This document shows, in pieces, positions 3,831 to 48,076 of a stretch of DNA of 64,000 nt. Source of the stretch: Candidatus Berkelbacteria bacterium (GTDB lineage Bacteria > Patescibacteriota > UBA1384 > 2-12-FULL-50-11); assembly GCA_016432625.1 (NCBI GenBank), contig CP066697.1, positions 586,561 through 650,560 of the forward strand, given 5' to 3'. Below the pieces are notes generated by a model that was not told where the DNA came from, did no database searches, and was given only the letters and a program-made list of their open reading frames with translations. The position numbers and the translations under genes are program-made. The first letter of the stretch is position 1. Every line of letters begins with the position of its first letter.

Positions 3831-5172
3831 TTAAGAATACTTCCTTGGCGCCTTAGTGTGATAGTCGGTCTCGGCTTGAAAAGTCTTCGCTAGGGAAATT
3901 AGCTTGTTGTCTTCAAAGTGCGGCGCGACAATTTGTGCCCCGATTGGCATGCCAGAAGCGCTGAAACCACACGGCAGAGCAATCGCTGGGATGCCGGCTA
4001 AATTTACTCCGACCGTCAACAAATCGGATTGATACATGGCGATCGGATCCTTAACGCGACTGCCGATATCAAATGGCAGTGTCGGCGTCGTGGGTGAAAT
4101 CAGCACATCAACTGATTTGAAAACTCGCTCATAATCTTGCCGGATCATATCCTTGACCCGAACGGCCGTTTGGTAATAGGCGTCGTAATGACCGACCGAG
4201 AGAACGTAAGTCCCAAGCAATATCCGCCGTTTCACTTCTTGCCCGAAGTGCGCCCGGGTATCGCGATAAATGTCTTTTAACTCGTCGCGCCGTTCGCTCT
4301 TCTGGAAACGAATACCGTCATAGCGTGCTAAGTTCGCAGACACCTCTGCAGGCGTAATTACGTAATATGCTGGCAAACCGTAAGGCAGATACGGCAGTGA
4401 AACTTTGCTCACAATTGCGCCCCGAGATTCAAAAAAACCGACAAATTCCTTTACGGCGCGGGCAATCTCCTGATCAATATCTAGCTCCCAGAGCTCCTTG
4501 GGCAAGCCGACGCGTAAGCCTTTCAGATTGACATCCTCAGGTTTGTAGGTGTAATCGGTCGTTGTCTGGTCGAACTTATCCTGACCGCTGATAGCCGCGA
4601 AGACTCGCTCGACAGTGTTAGCGTCGCGGGCAAGTGGCCCGATTACATCAATTGAGCTTGTTAAGGCGATGAGTCCGTAGCGCGAGACGGAACCGTAAGT
4701 AGGTTTAAGGCCAGTCACGCCGCAGAACGCTGCCGGTTGTCGAATCGAACCAGCCGTGTCGGAACCAAGGGCAGCGTCGCAAAGCCCGGCAGCAACTGCT
4801 ACGGCCGACCCCCCAGAAGAACCACCTGGCACCTTACTGGTATCCCAGGGATTTTTCGTTACACCGTAAGCCGAATTCTCCGTCGAGGAGCCCATGGCGA
4901 ATTCGTCAAGATTCGTTTTACCCAATAGTGCCGCTCCTTTGGCTCTAAGCCGTCGGACAACCGTTGCGTCATATGGGGAAACGTACCCCTCCAAGATTTT
5001 CGAGGCAGCAGTTGTTGGCCAGTCTTTGACGACGATGTTGTCCTTTATGGCCAGAGCCATATCAGCTAACTCACCTTCTACTACCGCTGTAGTGCGGTCG
5101 TTTTCGGCCTGAAAAAGAAAAGCGTTCAGCTCTTGGTTAGTTGTTTTAATGCGCTCCGAGTAACTGGCAGCT

Positions 5173-36296: not shown

Positions 36297-38585
36297 TTAG
36301 TGCCCCTTCTCGGTTGATGCCGTGACCAATGCGGGCGGTTTCTTATCTTGCAGCTCCACTCGGGGCGCTGAGAGCGGTCCCTCCAGGATAGCGCCGTCGA
36401 TTTTCTCCGGCGGCTCAGTCAACACCGGCAGTTCGAAGATAAAGTCGCTCCCCTTACCCTCCTCCGACTCCACCCAGATGCGGCCCTTGTGCAATTCGAC
36501 AAAATTCTTACTGATGTACAGACCTAGGCCAGTACCTTTCTGCTCATCAATTTCGCGTTTGACTTGGGAGAACTTCTGGAACAGTTTCTTCTGGCCGTCT
36601 GCGGATATGCCGCGGCCGGTATCGATAACGTCAAAGCGAAGCTTGCCGGCATCGGCACCGATTTTCATGACAATGCCACCTTTTTCGGTGTATTTAATCG
36701 AGTTGCCGACTAAGTTGACGATAACCTCGCGGATTCGGTCGGGATCGCACCAAGTTTCTGGGACAGCCTTTTTGTCGGCTTCGAGTTTTATCGTCAGTTT
36801 CTTGGCGTCAACCTTTACCTGCAGCTCGTGTAGGACAGACTCGGCCAGGTCGTAAAGATTGGTCTTGGCAAATTTCATCTTGACGCGACCCTGTTCAATA
36901 CGGGAGACGTTCAGGAGGTCAAGAATCAGTTCGGCGAGACGTTTTGAGGAGTCGTAGGCGCGGTGCAAGTAGACGCTAGCCTTCTTATCAACCTTACCCA
37001 TGTGCTCATCCAGAATCATCGAGAGGTAGCCTTCAACGGCGGCGAGTGGGGTATTGAGCTCGTGAGAAGCCATGGAGATGAACTCGTCCTTGAGCTTATC
37101 GAGGTCAGCCAGGTATTCATTGGCGCTCTTTAACTGCTCAAAGGCGTAAGCCCGTTGGATCGCCAGCGAGGTCTCGTCGGCGATTGCCGTTGCCATATCG
37201 ACGTCGCGCTCTTCAAGCTGCTCCTTGGGCACGCGATAGGCAAACAGCATCACGCCTAGCGGTTCCTTGCCGGCAAACAGCGGCACTGCCAAGACGTATT
37301 TTAGGCCCGTTAAGGTCTGAATCGTCGCCGCAACAGGTTTGCCAATTGGCGGAGAGATGAAGTCACTGAGACGAGTGGATTCCTTGAGCTGGTGTTCAAT
37401 CAGGGCGTTATGCAGCATGTTGAAGTCTTTCTTAATCGGATAGCTATACCGGTCAAGGTCGCTACCGACAAGGCTGTATATCTTCTTTGTGAATTCGTTA
37501 GAGGAGATGGCGTAGGCGGCTAAATGACCTCCTTTTACCAGGTTTAGGAGCGCACCGTTGCAGTTGTCGAATTGTTTGGGAATCTCATCGAGGATTGCCT
37601 GCAGCATTGGCCTCATTTCATTCTGGTTAAGCACCATCTTTGAGACCTTCTGCAACGCCGCTAGGTTTTTATTCCGCTGCTCCAGTTCCTTTAGAGTCTC
37701 AGTTTTCTCCGCCGCCAGCTGTTCGATCTCCTTCCTTCTGGCAATTTCCCGTGAAACGTTACGAACTAGGGAGTAGCTCCCTATGGCTACTAACACAGTG
37801 ACTAAGGACTTTAGGAGTAGCTCCCCTGCTGACCTAGAGAGGAAGATTTGAGTCAGGAGCACAATATTTAGCCCTAATGCCACCACAGCCGTCACGACTG
37901 CCCTGATATCGAAAAGTCGATGCGCTACTATCGAATATGCAGTCCCCAACACGAATAGAATGGAAGAATAATTTCCGACCTTATAATAACGGTCTGAACC
38001 AACAATAGGACGTACGACGTAATAAACTATGAGATTTACTGCGACTACTGCCGTGATACCCAGGAAAAAGATCTGCAACTGACTCTTTTCTTGGCCTTGA
38101 GCTTCTTTGTATTTAATCAGGAAATGATAAATCGAGGCAACGAAGACAACGAACAGGAAGGTTAGAAGAAGGTAGTATCCCTGCCCAGTAATTAGCTCGC
38201 TCCCGAACTCTTTGAAAGTGACTCCACTAACAACGAGATTGGAAAACAATGATATTGCTGCAAGGAGGGCGCCCAGGAAATATGCGAGTTTTGTCGTTAA
38301 CCCATTGTGTTTATGGGAGTGCGGAAAAATAAAAGAGAAGTGAAGTAGTATCGGCCCAAGAAACGCCAGGGAAACAAAAACAAGACGGTTGAAGAGTAGT
38401 GATAGAGATTCTTGGCGAAAATAGTCAGATAAAAATGCAAAAGTTATCCAGCCGAGAATGGTTGTTACTAGGGTGGCAAAGACCAGATTTGAATTCTTTT
38501 TCCTGTCTTGTGCGATGACCGCAATAGTGATTGTGATACCCACAAGATCGATGAGCGGAACGATAAAGTTATCGAGGTATTGCAT
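36297..38585 (-). CDS. sensor histidine kinase: multi-TM sensor domain + GAF + HisKA + HATPase_c
   Basis: About 8 N-terminal TM helices, GAF-like middle, H-box FISMASHELNTPLAAVEGY, N/G1/G2 ATPase boxes. Confidence 0.85.
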   Translation of the reverse strand: MQYLDNFIVPLIDLVGITITIAVIAQDRKKNSNLVFATLVTTILGWITFAFLSDYFRQESLSLLFNRLVFVSLAFLGPILLHFSFIFPHSHKHNGLTTKLAYFLGALLAAISLFSNLVVSGVTFKEFGSELITGQGYYLLLTFLFVVFVASIYHFLIKYKEAQGQEKSQLQIFFLGITAVVAVNLIVYYVVRPIVGSDRYYKVGNYSSILFVLGTAYSIVAHRLFDIRAVVTAVVALGLNIVLLTQIFLSRSAGELLLKSLVTVLVAIGSYSLVRNVSREIARRKEIEQLAAEKTETLKELEQRNKNLAALQKVSKMVLNQNEMRPMLQAILDEIPKQFDNCNGALLNLVKGGHLAAYAISSNEFTKKIYSLVGSDLDRYSYPIKKDFNMLHNALIEHQLKESTRLSDFISPPIGKPVAATIQTLTGLKYVLAVPLFAGKEPLGVMLFAYRVPKEQLEERDVDMATAIADETSLAIQRAYAFEQLKSANEYLADLDKLKDEFISMASHELNTPLAAVEGYLSMILDEHMGKVDKKASVYLHRAYDSSKRLAELILDLLNVSRIEQGRVKMKFAKTNLYDLAESVLHELQVKVDAKKLTIKLEADKKAVPETWCDPDRIREVIVNLVGNSIKYTEKGGIVMKIGADAGKLRFDVIDTGRGISADGQKKLFQKFSQVKREIDEQKGTGLGLYISKNFVELHKGRIWVESEEGKGSDFIFELPVLTEPPEKIDGAILEGPLSAPRVELQDKKPPALVTASTEKGH

Positions 38586-39367
38586 TACTCCCCGGCCAGA
38601 TGAAGAATGTGCGGATCGAAGCTTATAAAGTCCGGCGCCTTTTTCACTGGCAAGCCAAGAACGAGACGCTTTATTGCAATTACCGACAATGCGGCAGTAG
38701 AGTAAGCAGCACTAGCTGGCTGTGGGATATTATCTAGCCTGCCCTCTATTACATCGTTTAGAACTGGGCTCAGGTACTCGGGGATTATTCCAGTGTAATA
38801 GGCCATGAACTTGTCTCTAAGTCCCGAGTCATTTCCCCGCTCGCTCTCTGTAATCTCAAGCATCTCTTCCAGAGACTTACTATCCTTTGTAAAGATAAAA
38901 ATGCCTCCGCCCCAGCCAATATCAACTGGATATACCACGGGGAGTCCCATCTTTTTGCATTGTCGGTGCAGCTCTACGACAGCCATAGGAGACTCTAGAG
39001 GGTCTATAGCATCTACGACCACATCGATACCTTCAAGGGCGGCTGAAATATTAGAGCTGTCTAAAAAACTACCTATTTCTTTAACGTGAATGCGCCTATT
39101 GAGCTTCTTGAGTCTTCTAGCTAAAGCCTCGACTTTTGGCTGCCCGAGATCATCGGAACTGTACTCCTGGCGATTAAGATTGCTCTCCTCCACTACGTCA
39201 CCATCAGCTAGTACGATGTGGTGGAAACCGGTTCTGGCTACCCCCACCGCGATGACCGATCCGATTCCACATCCAGCAATGAGTACGGTCTTCCCTGCTA
39301 GTTCATGGTACTGTTTCTCTGAAAGAAGACCCAGGTTCCTACTTAGAAATGCCTTATTAACCTCCAT
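38585..39367 (-). CDS. ThiF/MoeB/HesA-family E1-like adenylyltransferase
   Basis: Rossmann motif VLIAGCGIGSVIAVGVARTGF and ESNLNRQ; 260 aa; no rhodanese domain. Confidence 0.8.
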   Translation of the reverse strand: MEVNKAFLSRNLGLLSEKQYHELAGKTVLIAGCGIGSVIAVGVARTGFHHIVLADGDVVEESNLNRQEYSSDDLGQPKVEALARRLKKLNRRIHVKEIGSFLDSSNISAALEGIDVVVDAIDPLESPMAVVELHRQCKKMGLPVVYPVDIGWGGGIFIFTKDSKSLEEMLEITESERGNDSGLRDKFMAYYTGIIPEYLSPVLNDVIEGRLDNIPQPASAAYSTAALSVIAIKRLVLGLPVKKAPDFISFDPHILHLAGE

Positions 39368-39383
39368 TGAATACAGTATACAT

Positions 39384-39929
39384 TCACAGCTTTAGACGGA
39401 CAGGATAGTTCATAGTATTCATGTATTCGTTCGAAGGAGAGCCAATCTCCACGAAGTCATATCCCCTCTTCTTCAGGCTTTTAAGTAACCAGTCCTCTAC
39501 AACAGCGTAAATATTCTTGACGTCATTCTCTTTGACAATCTTTAATATTTCTTCAGCCAGTAAACGAAAAATTTCTCGTCGTGTCTCTTGCTTGCGACGG
39601 TACGCTTTAGCGATCATAAAACGCGAGACTTCACAAGAATGGCCCATATCTTTTTCTTCGGGCAGTTCGAAATGCTCGAAAATCGGCAACGCTTTTTCCG
39701 CGGGCAGTATAACCCTAGCGTAGCCAGCTAGGCGTCGCCCAATCAGTACAACTACGTGAATGGACTGCCCATCGTACTCATCGGACTCTCGACGGTGCTG
39801 GTATTTATCGCTTTCAAGAAAGCCCTTCTCTTCCACGTAAACCCGGTAACGAAGTTCCGCAATCTTCGGAAACAAATCATCGTTGACAAGTATTCTCTCT
39901 ACGTGTGGCCGAGCCCTGAGTAATAACAT
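39384..39929 (-). CDS. LuxI / N-acyl-amino-acid-synthase-like GNAT N-acyltransferase
   Basis: Motifs RYRVYVEEKGF, ESDEYD, VVVLIGRRLAGYARVILP and SCEVSRFMI match the autoinducer-synthase/NAS fold pattern (R..VF..E.GW; E.D.YD; G.L.G..RL.P; E.SRF). Confidence 0.6.
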   Translation of the reverse strand: MLLLRARPHVERILVNDDLFPKIAELRYRVYVEEKGFLESDKYQHRRESDEYDGQSIHVVVLIGRRLAGYARVILPAEKALPIFEHFELPEEKDMGHSCEVSRFMIAKAYRRKQETRREIFRLLAEEILKIVKENDVKNIYAVVEDWLLKSLKKRGYDFVEIGSPSNEYMNTMNYPVRLKL

Positions 39930-40141: not shown

Positions 40142-40226
40142 GCGCTCAACAACGAGACATCTCGCTGTTGATGAGGTTCTTTAACAAAAAGGATATCATT
40201 GCAGTAGAAGTCTCGTGGAGAAGTAA

Positions 40227-41246
<1,020 letters not shown>

Positions 41247-41257
41247 AGGAGGTCGTC

Positions 41258-42340
41258 ATGTCTGAAATCGTTCGCGTCGCAACAAAAGCGATGAGGATGA
41301 TGCTCGGCGAGCAAGACGACCCTGAACTCATCCTTCTCTCCTTCCCCGGAAGTTCTGGTGCGAGAGTGTCGCTTTTTAGACACGCTCGCACCAATTCTCT
41401 CTATGCAGTGAAGTGCGTGGCGCAGTCACGGGTTTCACTAATGGACGAGATCGGAAGAAGAAACGCACTAACGCCTTACCTGCCGGATCACCTCCCGCAG
41501 GTATTATGGTGCCAAGTGTTGGACGGCTTCGAGGTCATGATCTCCGAGTGTAAGGGGATACATTCCCTCCATCACCTCATTATCAACTCCAACGTGCCTC
41601 ACAGTCGTTTACTAGGAGTCTGGAAGGACTTTATAGAGGCGCTACTGCGAATGTGGCAAGGTTCCGAGCACCAGTTCAATGAAGCTCTGTGCCCGCGCTT
41701 CTTTCCCGCCCGGCTGGGTAGGATTGAGCAGGGTATTCGTAATGCGACCGTTGGCAAGACCAAGCTCTCCGAGTGTTGGGATATGCCAGTGGTCGTCAAC
41801 GGTAGCGAATACCAGTCTATCGCAAAATCGTTCGAGGCGATTGCCCAGGTGGGCAAGCCAAAAATGGGCGTAGTGTGCCACGGCGATCCTCAGCCCAGCA
41901 ATATCGTTGTCGGGACGAGGTACTCATGGTACTGCGTAGACTGGGAGTGGGCAGGCCCTCATCAGGATTGGAGAATGATGTTGGCCAATCTCTACGGGTG
42001 GTGGTCTACCCGTTGCAGCGTCTTGTCTACCGATGCCGTCTTGCGAGTGTCTCGAAATCGTCTTGAAATCGAACACAGCTCGTACGTGCCGACCCACTTA
42101 CAACCGTACCAAGACATCGCGCGCTCCGTTGCTTCGACGATGTCAGCTGGATTTCCGAGTGAGGAGACGACAAATGACGTTAACCGGTTTCTCGCCGCGC
42201 TCTACTTTGGGGAGATTAGATTTCTTCACATGTGGGGACGCGAGGCTTTCGCTGAAACAATGCTGGCTCAGGCCATCACTACGATTAGCGGATCATATCG
42301 GGGCGCTAACGCACAGTCGTTCAGATTCCCTCAACAATAA
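41258..42340 (+). CDS. APH/ChoK-like phosphotransferase (protein-kinase-like fold)
   Basis: Brenner motif VCHGDPQPSNIVV and D-W-E metal-binding motif YCVDWEWAG; start 12 nt after the trpS stop. Confidence 0.6.
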   Translation: MSEIVRVATKAMRMMLGEQDDPELILLSFPGSSGARVSLFRHARTNSLYAVKCVAQSRVSLMDEIGRRNALTPYLPDHLPQVLWCQVLDGFEVMISECKGIHSLHHLIINSNVPHSRLLGVWKDFIEALLRMWQGSEHQFNEALCPRFFPARLGRIEQGIRNATVGKTKLSECWDMPVVVNGSEYQSIAKSFEAIAQVGKPKMGVVCHGDPQPSNIVVGTRYSWYCVDWEWAGPHQDWRMMLANLYGWWSTRCSVLSTDAVLRVSRNRLEIEHSSYVPTHLQPYQDIARSVASTMSAGFPSEETTNDVNRFLAALYFGEIRFLHMWGREAFAETMLAQAITTISGSYRGANAQSFRFPQQ

Positions 42341-42351
42341 GGAGTAGGCAT

Positions 42352-43197
42352 ATGTATCGAACGTTCATGACTCAACAAAACTTCGACTTTGTCCAGCAGG
42401 CCATAAGGCGCCTAGCTGGGGAGGTCGAGGCAAAAGACGGGGACGGAAGCTTCTGGGTGAACTACGGCAGCTTCGTGCTGAACCAACAAACGCCCGAGAG
42501 CGATCTTGACCTGCTCTTCATCCACAGTCAGCCAACCGCCGTACGAAGAATCCAGTCATCTTTCAGTGGCCACGACGTTACGATCTACTCGCTCAACAGA
42601 AGAGATTTTGTTAGCGACGGTCAACGCAGGGTGTTTGGAGGATACTTCGGCGGTAAGGTTCTTAACCCCCTGGTTACGTTCAATGCCTCGGAGAAGGATC
42701 AAAGCATGCTACTGGAGGTCGGTGGGTTATTCATCGGCCAATTCGCTTCTGCGATAGCAGATAAGCATGTTCGGAGAACCTCCACGAAGGCAAACCTTGC
42801 GGCAGATTCGGTCCTAGCAAGACTCCATCTTTGCCCTTGGTATCGAAGCTACTTTCTGCGGTACTTCACCTCACCGACTTTCCCACAGCTGTGGGACAAG
42901 ATGTCGGAGGTGACTACCCTGTCTTTCCTGAAAGCAGGGATAGTGACGCAGGACGACGACAACTTTCGCTACCTAAATACGCTCTCACTCGCGGATTTAC
43001 ACGAGACTGCCCTTGAGGCAGTTGCCCGATTCTGGGCGTTAGGTAGCTGTCTACACGGTGCTTTACCCGACTTTCCGGCATTTTACATGCAGAAGGCCGA
43101 GCAGTACGTGCGGGACAACCGACTAGAAAATCGCCTGGAGGAGATGATGAGTTTTCTCCAAGCCCAGTCCAACACAGGAGGAACCCATGTTAACTGA
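42352..43197 (+). CDS. Pol-beta-superfamily nucleotidyltransferase
   Basis: Minimal NTase motif NYGSFVLNQQTPESDLDLLFIH (G-S-x9-13-D-h-D); 281 aa. Confidence 0.6.
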   Translation: MYRTFMTQQNFDFVQQAIRRLAGEVEAKDGDGSFWVNYGSFVLNQQTPESDLDLLFIHSQPTAVRRIQSSFSGHDVTIYSLNRRDFVSDGQRRVFGGYFGGKVLNPLVTFNASEKDQSMLLEVGGLFIGQFASAIADKHVRRTSTKANLAADSVLARLHLCPWYRSYFLRYFTSPTFPQLWDKMSEVTTLSFLKAGIVTQDDDNFRYLNTLSLADLHETALEAVARFWALGSCLHGALPDFPAFYMQKAEQYVRDNRLENRLEEMMSFLQAQSNTGGTHVN

Positions 43198-44221
43198 GTC
43201 CTGGCTTCAAGACAGGATGCGATTGGCCGCAGCTGAGGCGACTGTTACCGTCAAGCAGTTTGCGCTTGAGACGATCGCAGATTCGCCAGACGACGCGTTC
43301 ACCGAGATACGTAACGGGTTCGCACGAGTCGGCGTCTTCGCGTTCCAGAACCCGGTACCGGTTTTCGAAGCCATGCTCGACCGGAAACAGTTCTCTGTTC
43401 TCGTCGGTATGCGCCCGAACGCGGTATTTCATCTCGGACATCTTACGCTTATGCGAGAATTGCATTGGCTCATCCAGCAAGGCGGCCAACCGATCTTCGT
43501 GTTTGCGGGATATGAAGCTGATCGACATATCACGACAAGTGAGGCAGAGCAGGAGACGATGCGCTTTGATCAAGCGTACCGGAAGTTCACCGGGACTCCA
43601 TTGCCGGCAACCGCAGTGAGCTTCTCCGATCAAGACAGTCAAGAGCTGAAAGTCCTAGAGTTAGGCGCTGCGAAGTGCTTATCTACAAGGAAGGTTCTTC
43701 AGTTGTATGGCTGGGACGCGAGCATCCCACTCGCTTCGTTACGCGTACCTGCCATTACGGCAGCAGCGTTTCTTCTGCCTACGACCCTCTACCCGAAACG
43801 GCCGGCACTGGTACTTTCGGACATCCATCAAGTCACACATGCAGAAGCCGCCAAGATCGTGGCCTGCAAACTACAACTCCCTTCGCCCAGCTACTCGTAT
43901 CGCCTGCTTCTTCCGAGTCTGAGGGGCCCGACAAAGAGAATGAGCGCTAAGGACGCCAAGTCGCTCATCACGCTCATTGAACCAACGGAGCAGGTGGAAC
44001 GTAAGCTACGTCAATGCTTTTCCGGAGGTCGTCAAAGCCCCGAGGAACAGCGAAGCGCGGGCGGCGACCCACAGCACTGTTCCTTCTTCCGGATTGCCGA
44101 GCTGCTACAGCCTTACGAGACTACAGCGCAGATGCATGAGGACTGTGTTTCAGGAGCATCGCTGTGTGGTGAGTGCAAAAAGAAGCACTTGAGCAATATC
44201 GCAAGGAGGATCCATGGATAG
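43187..44221 (+). CDS. divergent TrpRS/TyrRS-like class I aminoacyl-tRNA-synthetase paralog with Cys-rich C-terminus
   Basis: HIGH-like GMRPNAVFHLGHLTLM, KMSKS-like KRMSAKD, C-terminal DPQHCSFF...CVSGASLCGECKK; about 55 aa N-terminal extension; overlaps the NTase gene by 11 nt. Confidence 0.65.
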   Translation: MLTESWLQDRMRLAAAEATVTVKQFALETIADSPDDAFTEIRNGFARVGVFAFQNPVPVFEAMLDRKQFSVLVGMRPNAVFHLGHLTLMRELHWLIQQGGQPIFVFAGYEADRHITTSEAEQETMRFDQAYRKFTGTPLPATAVSFSDQDSQELKVLELGAAKCLSTRKVLQLYGWDASIPLASLRVPAITAAAFLLPTTLYPKRPALVLSDIHQVTHAEAAKIVACKLQLPSPSYSYRLLLPSLRGPTKRMSAKDAKSLITLIEPTEQVERKLRQCFSGGRQSPEEQRSAGGDPQHCSFFRIAELLQPYETTAQMHEDCVSGASLCGECKKKHLSNIARRIHG

Positions 44222-44236
44222 GAAAAATCCAGACCG

Positions 44237-44276
44237 AAAAGGCCGGCCGTGCGATGCACTTACCGGCCTTTTTTTG
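44237..44276 (+). terminator. Rho-independent terminator after the trpS-kinase-NTase-trpS2 operon
   Basis: GGCCGGCCGTGCGATGCACTTACCGGCC stem-loop followed by TTTTTTT. Confidence 0.6.
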
Positions 44277-44302
44277 ACTCCCAAGGCGCGAGTTAGCGTC
44301 AC

Positions 44303-44331
44303 TTGACACCCAGGTTAACTCAACCTACTAT
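44303..44331 (+). promoter_or_regulatory. putative promoter (TTGACA-17-TACTAT) driving a leaderless leader-peptide transcript
   Basis: TTGACA at 44303-44308, 17 nt spacer, TACTAT at 44326-44331; predicted +1 coincides with the ATG at 44339. Confidence 0.4.
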
Positions 44332-44338
44332 TACCAAG

Positions 44339-44392
44339 ATGGTTAAACAGCTGTCGACTACAACTTGGTGGGGAGGCTTGACACTGATTTAG
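44339..44392 (+). CDS. 17-codon leader peptide MVKQLSTTTWWGGLTLI with tandem Trp codons
   Basis: ATG 44339, TGG TGG at 44366-44371, TAG stop 44390-44392; followed by an antiterminator/terminator arrangement upstream of the ligase gene. Confidence 0.45.
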   Translation: MVKQLSTTTWWGGLTLI

Positions 44393-44429
44393 GTGACTAG
44401 GCCACTTTGCCATAACTAAAACCACGAGG

Positions 44430-44450
44430 CCCGGTCACCCGGGATTTTTT
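44430..44450 (+). terminator. attenuator terminator hairpin (CCCGG-TCAC-CCGGG + U6) 20 nt upstream of the ligase start
   Basis: 5 bp all-GC stem, 4 nt loop, TTTTTT at 44445-44450; upstream GGTGAC (44392-44397) is complementary to GTCACC (44434-44439) inside the hairpin. Confidence 0.45.
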
Positions 44451-44469
44451 GTACCTCACAAGGAGCCCT

Positions 44470-45225
44470 ATGATTACCCTTTCGACATACGCTTCGCAGT
44501 TCGCTTTTGCGCCCGAACACACCCTGCATATAGGGGTGGAGCGCGAAAGCTTCCTCGTCCAACACAGCGAGATCGTACCAGCAGCGTTCGAGGTGCTGAA
44601 AATGCTACCTCAACCGCGATTCGGTTACGAACTTTCAGCGTGCCAACTGGAAGACCGCGTCGGTCCGTGTCAGTTAGCTCAACTACCAGACGAGCTGAAA
44701 CGAAACGATGAGTTAGCCGAGGAGGCACTGAGTCTTCTCGGTCTGCGGCGACTGTTCCTAGAAGTCGCTCCTGACTCCATGCCGCTCGACCACTACCCCT
44801 CGAAACGTTACGACGAGATCGTCGCCAAGATCACCAAAGAGCGTCTTCTCGCTGCTTGCCAGGTGACGGGCACCCACGTTCATGTCGGTATGCCCGATGC
44901 GGATACGGCCATGAGGGTACATAGCGCCGTCATCCCTTACACCGACGAGCTCTGTCAAATGGGTGACCACTCTGGTGGTCGTCGCTTGCAGATCTATCGG
45001 ATTATGGCTGCCGACTATCAGCCAATCGCCTGGCGGGGCTGGGATCACTTCGAGGCCTACGCCATCGAGCATGACTTCGTCAACGACCCACGCTCGTGCT
45101 GGCACCTGATTCGCTTGTCGGTTCACGGCACGATCGAGTTTCGAATGTTTGGCAGCCCGCGTTCCAACGACGACGTCGTCAACTGGGCAGAACGTTGCTA
45201 CTCACTGTGTCGTGACGCCCTCTGA
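44470..45225 (+). CDS. short GCS2/YbdK-family carboxylate-amine ligase (gamma-glutamyl-cysteine-ligase-like)
   Basis: IGVERESFLV, QVTGTHVHVGMPD and WHLIRLSVHGTIEFRMFG match the YbdK motifs (GIELE..V; HVHVG; W.IRPS.HGT.EVR); AGGAG RBS before the ATG at 44470 (the ORF track offers an upstream TTG at 44449); lacks the C-terminal third of YbdK. Confidence 0.6.
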   Translation: MITLSTYASQFAFAPEHTLHIGVERESFLVQHSEIVPAAFEVLKMLPQPRFGYELSACQLEDRVGPCQLAQLPDELKRNDELAEEALSLLGLRRLFLEVAPDSMPLDHYPSKRYDEIVAKITKERLLAACQVTGTHVHVGMPDADTAMRVHSAVIPYTDELCQMGDHSGGRRLQIYRIMAADYQPIAWRGWDHFEAYAIEHDFVNDPRSCWHLIRLSVHGTIEFRMFGSPRSNDDVVNWAERCYSLCRDAL

Positions 45226-45253
45226 TGAATGGGGGGCCACTCCCCCATTCATC
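45224..45253. terminator. perfect 12 bp inverted repeat between convergent genes (bidirectional terminator candidate)
   Basis: GATGAATGGGGG-gccact-CCCCCATTCATC; overlaps the TGA of the ligase (45223-45225) and the stop of the deacylase (45252-45254). Confidence 0.6.
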
Positions 45254-46112
45254 AAACCTTTTCAATTTTACTCAGTAAAATAAACGACTCCTCGCCAACC
45301 TTTTGCTTTGGCCTGGGAAATAAGATGTAGGTATTATCTGCCGCAATGAATTTTCGCTGGCTATCCCGGGCGAACTGTTGAGCTGGCTCAAGTTTTTGGA
45401 AGTTAACGTAGGTTTGGTCAAATTCAAAATCAGCGGTTTCCCGCTTCACTACCTCGGCCACGCGGTACAATGCAGGCCGTGATTGGATTGCCTTTGGGGC
45501 ATCGACCAGCCCGTACTGGCCAAGAAAGGTTAGGACTGATTGCTCTGCTACAGGGACGTATTTCTCAGGCTCAAAGTTTGAACCGCACTCCAAACAGATA
45601 CCAATCTTGCCCTGCGAGGTCATATAACAATCGGTTCCACCGGTTGCGACTTCGCTAATACCGGTCAAAATCGCGCTGATCGGTAGGTGACCAGCAAGTT
45701 CTACGCCAGCCGAATCAGTGATAGCAAAGACATCCGTCTCTTGACCATTGTAACCGTGCAGATCGAGTAAAGCGTCACACTTGTTCAGTAACGCCATTAG
45801 CTCACGAGCCCGCTCATCCTCCCAGGTCTTGCCGTCGTTCCCGGTGAAGAAACAGCGGTTAAGATTCTTTAAAATTGACCGTTGTCTTCGTGCTATAGCA
45901 GGTGGATTGGCTAAAACAAAGTAGGCAGTTCCTGCTTTAATCTGGAGCGTTGGCAAAAGATTTTGGAGAGCCTGCACACCTGCCAGCTCGTTACCATGGA
46001 CCCCGGCAAAAACAGCGACTGTCTTGCCAGGCTTTGGTCCCCGTTTAATTGTCACAGTTTCATTGATTGTCATTCGTAGCCGCATCTTACCATCACGATT
46101 CTGATTAATCAC
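45252..46112 (-). CDS. AstE/AspA-family (succinylglutamate desuccinylase / aspartoacylase-like) zinc deacylase
   Basis: Zinc-binding VAVFAGVHGNELAGV and LDLHGY motifs; 286 aa. Confidence 0.7.
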   Translation of the reverse strand: MINQNRDGKMRLRMTINETVTIKRGPKPGKTVAVFAGVHGNELAGVQALQNLLPTLQIKAGTAYFVLANPPAIARRQRSILKNLNRCFFTGNDGKTWEDERARELMALLNKCDALLDLHGYNGQETDVFAITDSAGVELAGHLPISAILTGISEVATGGTDCYMTSQGKIGICLECGSNFEPEKYVPVAEQSVLTFLGQYGLVDAPKAIQSRPALYRVAEVVKRETADFEFDQTYVNFQKLEPAQQFARDSQRKFIAADNTYILFPRPKQKVGEESFILLSKIEKV

Positions 46113-46218: not shown

Positions 46219-46290
46219 GCCCTCGTAGCCTAGTGGTTAAGGCAACGGTCTCCAAAACCGTCGACGCAGGTTCGAATCCTGTCGAGGGTG
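46219..46290 (+). tRNA. trnW: tRNA-Trp (anticodon CCA)
   Basis: Hand-folded cloverleaf: acceptor GCCCTCG/CGAGGGT (one G-U), U8, D-arm GCCT-AGTGGTTAA-AGGC, anticodon stem ACGGT/ACCGT with loop CT-CCA-AA, T-arm GCAGG-TTCGAAT-CCTGT, discriminator G; CCA not encoded. Confidence 0.85.
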
Positions 46291-46322
46291 CAAACAAAAT
46301 CCCGAATCGTGAGGAAAATACT

Positions 46323-46535
46323 ATGCCACTTTCACCGACCCAGTCGGTCTCATTCTGGTGCGAAGAGTGCCAATGGAAGACTGGTGGTGTCATCATCGAC
46401 GGGAAACCCGTCTGTCCGAAGTGCCGAGGCAAGCTCCTTGGCATTAACTTTTGTCCTAAGTGCAAAATAGGCACGGCGCTTGAAGCCTGCCCGCTCTGCC
46501 ACGACCCTATCAAGTCGGACAGCGATCCCGGATAG
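46323..46535 (+). CDS. 70 aa Cys-rich double zinc-ribbon mini-protein (four CxxC pairs)
   Basis: MPLSPTQSVSFWCEECQWKTGGVIIDGKPVCPKCRGKLLGINFCPKCKIGTALEACPLCHDPIKSDSDPG; GAGGAAAA RBS 8 nt upstream of the ATG; 30 nt downstream of tRNA-Trp. Confidence 0.5.
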   Translation: MPLSPTQSVSFWCEECQWKTGGVIIDGKPVCPKCRGKLLGINFCPKCKIGTALEACPLCHDPIKSDSDPG

Positions 46536-46544
46536 GAGGGGATC

Positions 46545-47825
46545 ATGAAAGACCCATACAGTTGGCCTGGACAGGCCACGGAACTAGTCATGCGTGATGC
46601 CGAGAGCGCCCTTGGCGAATGTAGTTGTTTGCCCTGGGAGTGGGCCACATTTGGCTACCCCGGCAGAGCACCACTGCCAGTCGCGCTCGAAGCACTCACC
46701 CTCGCTCAAAAGATCAATCCCAACAATATCGGTGACCACTCGCTTCCCTTCCGACAGGCGGGGCATAAGCAAACCGAGCACGGGTTTGACGGTACCCAAC
46801 GATTGGAGCGTGAAGCAATTGCCAGCCTCGTCCAGCTTGCCGGTGGCGACCCAGCCACAACTGGCGGTTACCTCTGCGAGGGTGGCACCTCTGCCAACCT
46901 TGCCGGTCTCTGGATGGGACGCAATTACTTGCGAGCTCAACCTGGGGCAAAGCGAACGGTGATTATCACGACTCGTCTTGCCCACTACAGCATCCTGAAG
47001 GCAGCCGATATCCTCGGCTTCAACCCGAACGACATCATCTACGCGCCGTGTAACCGCTCCGGCGGTATATCGGTTTGCGACATCACTGAACTGGCGTATC
47101 GACTCCAGTCGGAAAGGATCACCGGCGTACTGTTCGTCTGTACGGCTGGGAGCACGATGATGGGCAGCGTCGACGATGTCAGCCAAGTTAACGAACTTCG
47201 CGCTGGCTTGAGGCTAGCCGGTATCTCGACGTACATCCATGTCGATGCGGCCTTCGGCGGGTTCGTGCTGCCGTTTCTGGCCAAGCCGGTACGCTTCGGC
47301 TTCGACCAGGGAGCTGACTCTGTCGTCATTGACCCCCACAAAATGGGGGGCGTACCGTTCGGTTGCGGAGCAATCCTCTACCGCGAGCAGTACGCCGGAC
47401 CAGTGGCGGTTAAGGCACCGTACTTGAACAGCGAACAGGACTGGACAATCAACGGCAGCCGCAGCGGCGCTAACGCTGTTGCTCTTTGGGCAGTGCTTGA
47501 AGAGCAGGGCTTTGATCAACTTGCCAAGTGCGTGCAGCAATGCATCGCTTTGCGCGACTACGCCAGAGAGCTATTGGACCAGGTCGACCACTTCCAAGTG
47601 CACGTCGGCCAAACCAACCAGCTTTGCCTGGAGATCACCGACCTTTCGGTGGTGGAGAGACTTGCTAGTCGAGTCTGTAACCACCCTTACTACATGCATG
47701 TCGCCCCGTTCCCCAGACGGTTCGACGACCCCAACTGCCAGGAAGGGCGCGCGCTCAAGATGATCTTGATGCCGCACCACACCAAGCAGATGGTGGACGA
47801 GTTCGTTAGACAGGTGAAACTATGA
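46545..47825 (+). CDS. group II PLP-dependent amino-acid decarboxylase
   Basis: PLP-lysine motif SVVIDPHKMGGVPFGCGAI and overall fold-type I layout; 426 aa. Confidence 0.8.
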   Translation: MKDPYSWPGQATELVMRDAESALGECSCLPWEWATFGYPGRAPLPVALEALTLAQKINPNNIGDHSLPFRQAGHKQTEHGFDGTQRLEREAIASLVQLAGGDPATTGGYLCEGGTSANLAGLWMGRNYLRAQPGAKRTVIITTRLAHYSILKAADILGFNPNDIIYAPCNRSGGISVCDITELAYRLQSERITGVLFVCTAGSTMMGSVDDVSQVNELRAGLRLAGISTYIHVDAAFGGFVLPFLAKPVRFGFDQGADSVVIDPHKMGGVPFGCGAILYREQYAGPVAVKAPYLNSEQDWTINGSRSGANAVALWAVLEEQGFDQLAKCVQQCIALRDYARELLDQVDHFQVHVGQTNQLCLEITDLSVVERLASRVCNHPYYMHVAPFPRRFDDPNCQEGRALKMILMPHHTKQMVDEFVRQVKL

Positions 47826-48076
47826 CAGCGGAACAGAGCGCAGCTCTACCTCAGCTGACATGGACCCCGGAAATGATAGAGACACTTCGATCTGAAGCTT
47901 GGGAGGCCGTGAGCAATCGCGAGCACTCAGCCATGAAGATCGAGCTGCTTCTCGCCCAAATCGAGGAGGTCCTCGAGCGCAAGCTCGTCAGCGGTAATGA
48001 GGTGTTGGTTTGGCACGAACGCCGAATCGAACTCCAAGAGCTGCACCAAATCGCCACTAGCCGCTGGGAAAACTAA
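47822..48076 (+). CDS. hypothetical protein (84 aa, 4 Trp)
   Basis: ATGA overlap with the decarboxylase stop; no motif. Confidence 0.4.
   Translation: MTAEQSAALPQLTWTPEMIETLRSEAWEAVSNREHSAMKIELLLAQIEEVLERKLVSGNEVLVWHERRIELQELHQIATSRWEN

Follow-up and report, generated by a model that had tools for sequence, protein, structure and literature searches.

In the 64,000-nucleotide (nt) stretch of Candidatus Berkelbacteria DNA analyzed here (contig CP066697.1, positions 586,561 to 650,560 of the forward strand; hereafter the window), a gene for a short ligase of the GCS2/YbdK type (44470-45225, + strand; 251 amino acids) is preceded by a leader (44303-44450, +) with the makings of a tryptophan (Trp) attenuator, and it is this leader and its likely role in controlling the ligase that we consider here. 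All of our evidence is computational and comes from sequence comparison, RNA folding and profile searches. The leader begins with a sigma-70-type promoter (44303..44331, +), in which TTGACA (44303-44308) and TACTAT (44326-44331) are separated by a 17-nt spacer; it scored 10/12 in a consensus scan and was one of two promoter-like matches within 43000-46000. The ATG at 44339 sits 7 nt past the -10 box and opens a 17-codon open reading frame (ORF; 44339-44392, +) with the sequence ATG GTT AAA CAG CTG TCG ACT ACA ACT TGG TGG GGA GGC TTG ACA CTG ATT TAG, which encodes MVKQLSTTTWWGGLTLI*. Codons 10 and 11 are a tandem Trp pair (TGG TGG, 44366..44371, +), which we propose as a stalling site, and the stop codon TAG occupies 44390-44392. 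No Shine-Dalgarno sequence precedes this ORF and the spacing of the -10 box leaves no space for one.

The stop codon is also where the alternative RNA structures begin. Its last base is the first G of GGTGAC (44392-44397), which is complementary to GTCACC (44434-44439) in an intrinsic terminator downstream, consisting of CCCGG-TCAC-CCGGG (44430-44443) followed by an A and six Ts (44445-44450). An original prediction, made from the letters of the window alone, had proposed the promoter, the small ORF with its Trp codons, this complementarity and a terminator hairpin ahead of the ligase ribosome-binding site, and we found each of them in place, with every coordinate right. The antiterminator turned out to be longer than first noted, with 11 bp between GGUGACU.GGCC (44392-44403) and GGCC.GGUCACC (44428-44439). 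Antiterminator and terminator have bases 44430-44439 in common and are therefore mutually exclusive.

The start region of the ligase follows, with AAGGAG at 44460-44465 and the ATG at 44470. From the U-run of the terminator to this ATG there are 20 nt, too few for a promoter, and the operon upstream of the leader carries a terminator of its own (44239..44275, +; AAGGCCGG...CCGGCCTT and a T7 run; the preceding ORF ends at 44221), which on our reading of the sequence ends transcription of the genes for a Trp-tRNA synthetase (trpS), a kinase-like protein, a nucleotidyltransferase and a second protein resembling Trp-tRNA synthetase (TrpRS). Because the 20-nt gap fits no promoter and the upstream operon is self-terminated, expression of the ligase requires read-through of the hairpin at 44430-44450.

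Conservation of the leader within its clade

The window belongs to a clade of five distinct sequences, the other four being loci that we call L003, L005, L006 and L007 (ligase identity 58-95%); we refer to the leaders of this clade as type A. A metagenome scan with the window ligase alone returned no relatives and a scan with the family alignment returned 80 loci, none above 54% identity, so that the clade remains at five sequences; an exact-protein look-up gave matches from the same organism only (two sequencing runs). The gene upstream is the same as in the window in L003 (ligase identity 95%, leader MVKHLSTIIWWGGLTLI) and L005 (81%, MVKQVQSIIWWGGNL), encodes an enolase-superfamily protein in L006 (76%, MITKKLAASWWEVLPN) and is a divergent AstE-like gene in L007 (58%, MNSNALCVTWWGSQTSLR). 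The leader therefore stays with the ligase despite the different upstream gene in the last two loci.

When the upstream regions were aligned, TGGTGGG was invariant and every clade locus had an in-frame mini-ORF with nine codons from the ATG to the TGG TGG, so that the window ORF has counterparts in L003, L005, L006 and L007; the original prediction had named conservation of this kind as a check. Peptide residues other than the two Trps vary. Between the window and L003 there are three substitutions, all of them non-synonymous, and indels between leaders keep the reading frame. To judge from these alignments, conservation confined to the Trp pair is the signature of a sensor ORF.

Four of the five clade leaders (the window, L003, L005 and L006) keep the promoter at 7 nt from the ATG and also keep the terminator. 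In L007 the terminator has another sequence and an equal shape (CCCGG-GUAG-CCGGG), and a matching new antiterminator arm, CUUGGGUU, stands directly after the stop codon. L005 carries a compensatory change in the antiterminator, with GUGAC/GUCAC replaced by GUGAU/AUCAC.

Trp T-boxes and tandem-Trp leaders at orthologous loci

A wider comparison covered 80 species-level genomes, whose ligase homologues are 36-54% identical, and a further 80 metagenome loci. In most upstream regions of the 80 genomes we found AGGUGG(U/C)ACC(A/G)CG followed by a hairpin and a U-run. The Rfam T-box model (RF00230) gave a full-length match in one of these loci (L035, E = 5.5e-10) and matched 12 of 19 further loci with E values between 3e-14 and 6e-3. 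The T-boxes of Patescibacteria score 31-74 bits, all under the Rfam gathering score of 93, and for this reason standard annotation misses them; a scan of 17 related loci at the gathering score did miss T-boxes that sequence reading, E-value scans and an nhmmer profile recovered. The nhmmer profile, built from 40 leaders, placed a T-box in 51 of the 80 genomes and 64 of the 80 metagenome loci, always on the strand of the ligase and mostly immediately upstream of it. Examples among L008-L167 are L035:3665-3874 and L149:31-227.

These T-boxes have a short Stem I, made of an outer helix and an inner hairpin that each show compensatory variation and that flank an unpaired N-UGG-G. Among about 78 distinct T-box leaders this element reads UUGGG in 58 and CUGGG in 7, with a few other variants, and the UGG is invariant. 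By position and form, N-UGG-G would be the specifier codon followed by a purine. UGG encodes Trp only, and in the UGGN bulge the N is always U or C, which fits the discriminator G73 of the local tRNA-Trp. Since the orthologues carry T-boxes with a UGG specifier, the ligase is predicted to be switched on by uncharged tRNA-Trp in most of the phylum. In the window leader, the Rfam model and the nhmmer profile found no T-box sequence (AGGGUGGNACCGCG), Stem I or specifier.

Among the loci without a T-box we identified six further distinct leaders with a tandem-Trp mini-ORF, giving 11 in total, all directly upstream of ligase orthologues. The predicted peptides of the six are MKSIPRNNFWWTWQNL (L012), MVIVVKKLAWWAYRNPLQS (L046), MKSARKLSLKLAWWLWENSPQSSGFIWV (L114), MKFGRHIVSMSWWRALQSNPQSPGLSLA (L118), MRFTGKVSAWWAQIESSKT (L130) and MNTKIQVTHSWWGWQ (L155). 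Their architecture is common to all and their antiterminator and terminator sequences are unrelated. All 11 leaders have the invariant Trp pair, a hairpin with a U-run, and an antiterminator arm that coincides with the stop codon or follows it closely (in L114 and L118 inside a longer ORF); L007, L012, L046, L118 and L155 show an equal antiterminator layout by the stop codon with different sequences. A sigma-70-type promoter scoring at least 10/12 is present in nine of the 11, and in every one 6-11 nt separate the end of the -10 hexamer from the leader ATG (7 nt in four of the five type-A leaders), a spacing consistent with leaderless initiation. The Trp pair lies at codons 10-11, 27 nt from the AUG, in eight leaders from separate lineages (the window, L003, L005, L006, L007, L012, L046 and L130) and 30, 33 and 36 nt from it in the other three. 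This 27-nt distance may reflect the geometry imposed by a ribosome that has stalled on an mRNA with no untranslated leader. The distance from the Trp pair to the stop codon ranges from 3 to 15 codons.

Tandem-Trp leaders and T-boxes exclude each other. Across 164 non-redundant ligase loci, 115 (about 70%) have a T-box, 11 have a tandem-Trp leader and none has both (Fisher p = 7e-7). No leader of either type was seen at about one quarter of the loci, many of which have the ligase behind another gene or too short an available upstream sequence, and a search of the remaining loci for W-x-W or looser Trp-rich ORFs gave nothing convincing. On a neighbor-joining tree of the ligase, the tandem-Trp leaders are spread over at least 3-4 separate clades, which are nested among those with T-boxes. 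When both strands of the window and of all fetched loci (about 1 Mb) were scanned for an intergenic short tandem-Trp ORF followed by a hairpin and T-run, the only matches lay directly upstream of the ligase. A sensor that would work through the ribosome and a riboswitch that binds tRNA have taken each other's place before this gene, probably several times, and such a replacement series should be useful for the study of regulatory RNA evolution.

In some of these loci another conserved and structured element follows the attenuator terminator, ahead of the ligase ribosome-binding site (L046:3886-3990, L012:3889-3990, L118:1095-1205, L114:571-690 and L130:773-880; also L105 and L033). It reads GUGCUG(A)UGG...CCACCAGCAC...AGUUCAUUCACAA...hairpin, and its loop repeats GUGCUGG, which suggests an alternative pairing with CCAGCAC. 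The copies in L012 and L046 matched no Rfam family at gathering score.

A proposed attenuation mechanism and its alternatives

By ViennaRNA, the fold of minimum free energy (MFE) of 44339-44475 is the antiterminator pairing. In the naked 112-nt leader the two alternative structures are nearly isoenergetic, at -30.5 kcal/mol for the terminator conformer vs -29.1 kcal/mol for the antiterminator conformer. Taken as isolated helices, the antiterminator (segments 2:3; 44392..44439, +) has -17.2 kcal/mol and the terminator hairpin (segments 3:4; 44430..44450, +) has -7.7 kcal/mol. The MFE fold of the 112-nt leader includes a further pairing between segments 1 and 2 (44366..44412, +), in which UGGUGGGG.GGCUUG.CACU (44366-85) pairs with GGUG..UAGGCC.CUUUGCCA (44392-44412). 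This helix is part of the terminator conformer and is predicted to form in untranslated RNA, where it would sequester the antiterminator arm and act as an anti-antiterminator. It is found in the MFE folds of the window and L003; in L005 and L006 a long helix between the 5' end of the ORF and the spacer would fill this role instead.

We modeled the translated states by masking, that is, by removing the RNA under the ribosome, with the second Trp codon in the A site for the stalled state and the stop codon as the other position. Stalled-ribosome masking gave the antiterminator and stop-codon masking gave the terminator in the window, L003, L007, L012, L046, L118 and L155, which is the switch that the original prediction had described. 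Comparative folding points the same way, with an RNAalifold consensus that corresponds to the antiterminator both for the window's clade and for a second leader group, with compensatory changes. For type A, 86.5% of the cells of the antiterminator are paired vs 53% or less in slid-partner controls, and there are two compensatory pairs.

Given these observations, we favor the view that the leader is a ribosome-mediated transcription attenuator with charged tRNA-Trp as its signal and one downstream gene, that of the GCS2/YbdK-like ligase, as its target, and we would put its probability at roughly 0.8. According to this model, transcription would start at or beside the A of the ATG at 44339, as the promoter spacing implies, and a 70S ribosome would load on the 5' AUG. 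When charged tRNA-Trp is plentiful, the ribosome would pass codons 10-11, reach the stop codon at 44390-92 and cover GGUGACUAGGCC (44392-44403); with the antiterminator arm covered, the terminator at 44430-50 would form, RNA polymerase would stop 20 nt 5' of the ligase ATG and the gene would be off. When charged tRNA-Trp is scarce, the ribosome would stall at UGG UGG, opening the 1:2 pairing and leaving 44392-44403, which lies 21 nt past the Trp codons, free to pair with 44428-44439. The antiterminator being favored over the terminator (-17.2 vs -7.7 kcal/mol), no terminator would form and the ligase would be transcribed. If the ORF is not translated, segment 1, Trp codons included, would pair with segment 2 and the terminator would again form. 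Ribosome-polymerase coupling, translation of the ORF, and the direction and magnitude of the response are steps that we infer.

The link between the ligase and Trp-tRNA charging, also part of the original prediction, finds independent support in the UGG-specifier T-boxes of the orthologous loci and in the tRNA-Trp and trpS genes that cluster by the ligase. That prediction had in addition drawn a putative link to TrpRS inhibitors such as indolmycin, which is possible; the indolmycin-resistant trpRS1 of Streptomyces is reportedly an example of Trp attenuation.

Several observations weigh against attenuation. Tandem Trp codons are present in 4 of the 402 short ATG-initiated ORFs of the window and so are not rare there (Trp accounts for 1.16% of codons in the long ORFs of the window). 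The fold z-score of the leader is only -0.94, and the terminator stem has just 5 bp at -7.7 kcal/mol. Among the relatives, L005, L006 and L114 keep the terminator as their MFE fold even with stalled-ribosome masking, the antiterminator becoming the best fold only when the 3' arm of the terminator is omitted as an approximation of co-transcriptional folding, and the antiterminators of two relatives are weak. Covariation is weak as well with just five type-A sequences, the observed value being attained in 20 of 500 shuffles. Transcripts that extend from the upstream operon into the leader would contain its ORF with neither a 5'-terminal AUG nor a Shine-Dalgarno sequence. Finally, we know of no demonstration of leaderless translation or of transcription-translation coupling in Patescibacteria.

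Of the other explanations, all of them unlikely, the one that survives best is that the sensor ORF acts mainly on translation or mRNA stability, for example through pairing of the U-tract with the Shine-Dalgarno region. The fold of 44339-44475 does pair the U-tract and GU with ACAAGGAG, and most loci have a conserved box beside the Shine-Dalgarno sequence. There is also precedent in mycobacteria, where leaderless small ORFs with poly-Cys codons unmask a ribosome-binding site and so exert translational control (Canestrari et al., bioRxiv 10.1101/834739). As in the mycobacterial case, the window has its sensory ORF at the 5' end of the transcript and a stalled ribosome would remodel the downstream RNA; unlike it, the structure to be remodeled would be an intrinsic terminator that precedes the Shine-Dalgarno sequence, and the amino acid sensed would be Trp and not Cys. 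However, the canonical GC hairpin with its U6 tract does not overlap the Shine-Dalgarno sequence, the T-boxes of orthologous loci likewise end in a hairpin and U-run, and sequence reading gives no clear anti-Shine-Dalgarno complementarity for the box in the window. A mode of action that is in part translational is conceivable.

One could also imagine that the RNA itself is the sensor, with an untranslated UGGUGG binding tRNA-Trp either at the anticodon (UGG with CCA) or at the 3' end (UGGU with GCCA) as a minimal T-box-like riboswitch. We consider this quite improbable. It would have the appeal that UGG and UGGU are both of the tRNA-contacting motifs of the Trp T-boxes at orthologous loci, and the peptide is indeed otherwise unconserved. 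However, all 11 leaders keep an in-frame ATG 27-36 nt before TGGTGG and 6-11 nt past the -10 box, with no stop codon in between; a stop codon is kept at or just before the antiterminator arm (except in L114 and L118, where the arm lies within the ORF); and indels preserve the frame. All of this speaks against a sensor made of RNA only. Moreover, a single tRNA cannot be contacted at its anticodon and at its acceptor end by two adjacent triplets, and nothing resembling the Stem I, Stem III or T-box sequence of a T-box was found in the leader.

Alternatively, the 17-residue product could have a function of its own, as a substrate of the ligase or as the precursor of a ribosomally synthesized and post-translationally modified peptide, with the hairpin and U6 as the terminator of its gene and leaky read-through feeding the ligase. 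Promoter, ORF and terminator do make a complete small unit and an amide-forming ligase adjoins, yet we give this scenario little credence. Only the two Trps are conserved, anything from 3 to 15 codons follow them, and close relatives differ by non-synonymous changes only. At 115 orthologous loci a T-box takes the place of the ORF, and hence the ligase does not need the peptide. In addition, the complementarity between antiterminator and terminator is kept through sequence change.

Hardly more credible is the absence of any switch, in which case the hairpin would be a constitutive partial terminator or an mRNA-stabilizing or processing hairpin and the tandem-Trp ORF a chance feature of the lineage. 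The 5-bp stem, the frequency of tandem Trp codons among short ORFs of the window and the modest z-score speak for this. The recurrence of the ORF in 11 leaders from at least 3-4 ligase clades, its mutual exclusivity with the T-box (p = 7e-7) and the absence of such elements elsewhere in about 1 Mb of fetched sequence argue strongly against chance. The least probable alternative is a TnaC-like arrest peptide that senses free Trp as a nascent chain and induces the ligase when Trp is in excess. TnaC, too, is a short leader peptide with Trp in it, and it ties ribosome stalling to the control of termination. But it requires W12, D16 and P24 at a fixed spacing to the stop codon and its termination is Rho-dependent, whereas here nothing beyond the Trp pair is conserved, the stop codon follows the pair at anything from 3 to 15 codons, the stop signal for transcription is not a Rho site but an intrinsic terminator to which an antiterminator is complementary, and the T-boxes of the orthologues respond to uncharged tRNA, that is, to starvation.

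The attenuator that we propose is closest in logic to trpL of E. coli and other Proteobacteria, with which it shares a short ORF with tandem Trp codons, the 2:3 and 3:4 pairings along with a predicted 1:2 pairing, a stop codon beside segment 2, an intrinsic terminator with a U-run and, by prediction, default termination in untranslated RNA. It differs from trpL in that there is no similarity in sequence or to the covariance model: a search of 44230-44490 against Rfam at E <= 10 gave no match, Trp_leader included, a scan of the whole window at gathering threshold found two tRNAs only, and a comparison of the region with E. coli genomes and phages by megablast found no match. Further differences are that the window ORF appears leaderless and is not led by a Shine-Dalgarno sequence, that its terminator stem is much shorter, that the host belongs to the Patescibacteria, and that the target is a single GCS2-like ligase and not Trp biosynthesis.

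Attenuators upstream of trp operons and of trpS and leuS have been predicted in Streptomyces and Corynebacterium (Seliverstov et al. 2005, PMC1262725). These resemble the window in placing leader-peptide attenuation outside the Proteobacteria and on a gene of tRNA-Trp metabolism instead of biosynthesis, and differ in phylum, in target gene and in having unrelated sequences. With the Trp T-box (RF00230) the window leader shares the proposed signal, namely tRNA-Trp charging, the choice between antiterminator and terminator and the position before the ligase, but it has no tRNA-binding architecture and sensing would go through the ribosome and not through an RNA-tRNA contact. The combination of apparently leaderless initiation with an intrinsic terminator and the non-biosynthetic target are the less usual traits of the proposed attenuator in the window.

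The downstream ligase and its neighborhood

The ligase matches Pfam GCS2 (PF04107) with 34.7 bits against a cut-off of 21 (E = 1.7e-8), the match spanning residues 19-154 only. Its score with NCBIfam YbdK (TIGR02050) is 54.1 bits, below the threshold of 176.4, and members of that family are typically about 370 amino acids long vs 251 here. The best match in PDB is 1tt4 (E = 0.007). We found 506 homologues, and all those with a lineage name are from Patescibacteria. The ligase belongs to a distinct short (about 250 amino acids) Patescibacteria branch of the GCS2/YbdK carboxylate-amine ligases.

Beside the ligase, nearly always 3' of it on the same strand, lies a partner gene, which codes for any of four enzymes that are unrelated to one another but all cleave amides of the gamma-glutamyl or N-acyl kind. 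Among L008-L167 the partner is AstE/AspA-like at 73 loci, gamma-glutamyl cyclotransferase-like (GGACT/AIG2) at 21, class-II amidotransferase-like (GATase_4) at 13 and an M20 peptidase at 10, with the peptidase gene upstream of the ligase at 9 more. The comparison of loci points to non-orthologous displacement of the partner. In the window the AstE/AspA-like gene is inverted and convergent with the ligase (45252-46112, -), as it is in L003, L005 and L006, and in L007 it is divergent and upstream. The clustering of these amide-cleaving partners and of Trp-related genes at the ligase suggests that the ligase/amidase module is tied to Trp-tRNA supply.

Taken together, the tandem-Trp leader and the UGG T-boxes could be parts of a phylum-wide response to shortage of Trp-tRNA, the main target of which would not be trpS or Trp biosynthesis but an unrecognized two-enzyme module made of the short GCS2-like ligase and one of the four amide-cleaving partners. 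Such a module might acquire or salvage host Trp, or might neutralize a TrpRS inhibitor, by way of a gamma-glutamyl or N-acyl intermediate, and the sensor ahead of it would repeatedly have changed from a riboswitch to a leaderless leader peptide or back. This broader picture is tentative, and we advance it as a suggestion that is less likely than not to be right. Patescibacteria are not known to make Trp. The locus in the window offers a concrete, testable nutrient-sensing switch in uncultivated, auxotrophic, host-dependent bacteria, and the switch marks a widespread ligase as part of the response to Trp limitation and gives a lead on how Trp is acquired or managed. We found no description of T-boxes or attenuators in Patescibacteria in the literature, and according to a 2024 review the regulation of their cell cycle and differentiation is virtually unknown (PMC11665869). 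At about 110 nt, the compact leaderless attenuator could also serve as a native expression-control part for Patescibacteria genetics.

The operon upstream of the leader (40230-44221) starts with a canonical bacterial trpS (40230-41246, +; TIGR00233, 252.8 bits vs a cut-off of 176.75; Pfam tRNA-synt_1b), in front of which we found neither a tandem-Trp leader nor a T-box. It continues with a gene for a 360-residue protein that has an HGDxxxxN/DWE kinase-like motif and no Pfam match (41258-42340, +), a nucleotidyltransferase gene (42352-43197, +) and a gene for a 344-residue, archaeal-type TrpRS-like paralogue with HLGH and KRMSAKD motifs, whose best NCBIfam match, PRK12285, is below the cut-off (43187-44221, +). 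This operon occurs only in the closest relatives (L003-L005), and its genes could serve in resistance to a Trp analogue or in making one. Between trpS and a histidine kinase gene there is a variable spot, occupied in the window by genes for a ThiF/E1-like protein and a GNAT/FeeM-like N-acyl amino acid synthase (38585-39929, -); in L003, which has 95% ligase identity, an aminotransferase gene (L003:2194-3453) replaces the ThiF/FeeM-like pair.

On the other side of the ligase and its convergent neighbor, a gene for tRNA-Trp (CCA) with discriminator G73 (46219-46291, +) is followed by a 70-residue double zinc-ribbon ORF with four CxxC motifs and no NCBIfam match (46323-46535, +), a gene for a pyridoxal phosphate (PLP) enzyme resembling MfnA and histidine decarboxylase (46545-47825, +) and an 84-residue ORF (47822-48076, +). 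We considered tRNA-dependent Trp synthesis by the kinase-like protein and the PLP enzyme acting on tRNA-Trp and rejected it, as the PLP enzyme is MfnA/histidine-decarboxylase-like and not of the SepSecS/SepCysS type. About half of the 80 genome loci have a gene for TrpRS no more than 4 kb from the ligase. A gene for tRNA-Trp (CCA) is found a few kb or less from the ligase in 16 of 60 loci scanned (L003, L007, L010, L011, L014, L029, L032, L033, L037, L044, L047, L049, L050, L053, L055 and L060), far above any other tRNA. In several of these, for example L007 and L049, it stands just 3' of the ligase on the same strand and could be co-regulated with it.

A last observation concerns the box beside the Shine-Dalgarno sequence of the ligase. 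The motif GTTC[TA]TT..ACAA occurs in 65 of 129 5' untranslated regions vs 0.02 expected (for example in L009 at about 3974-3985), and it is found together with a T-box, with a tandem-Trp ORF or with neither leader. It may be a binding site for a protein or an RNA; a role as an anti-Shine-Dalgarno sequence was considered for the GTTCTTT box and dropped, as the version in the window does not fit. The window version of GTTCTTT.ACAA is GTACCTCACAA (44451-44461), part of a box region (44451..44465, +) that overlaps the Shine-Dalgarno AAGGAG. A second copy in the window, GTTCTTTAACAA, lies in the 5' untranslated region of trpS (40176-40187), and L003 also has one before trpS.

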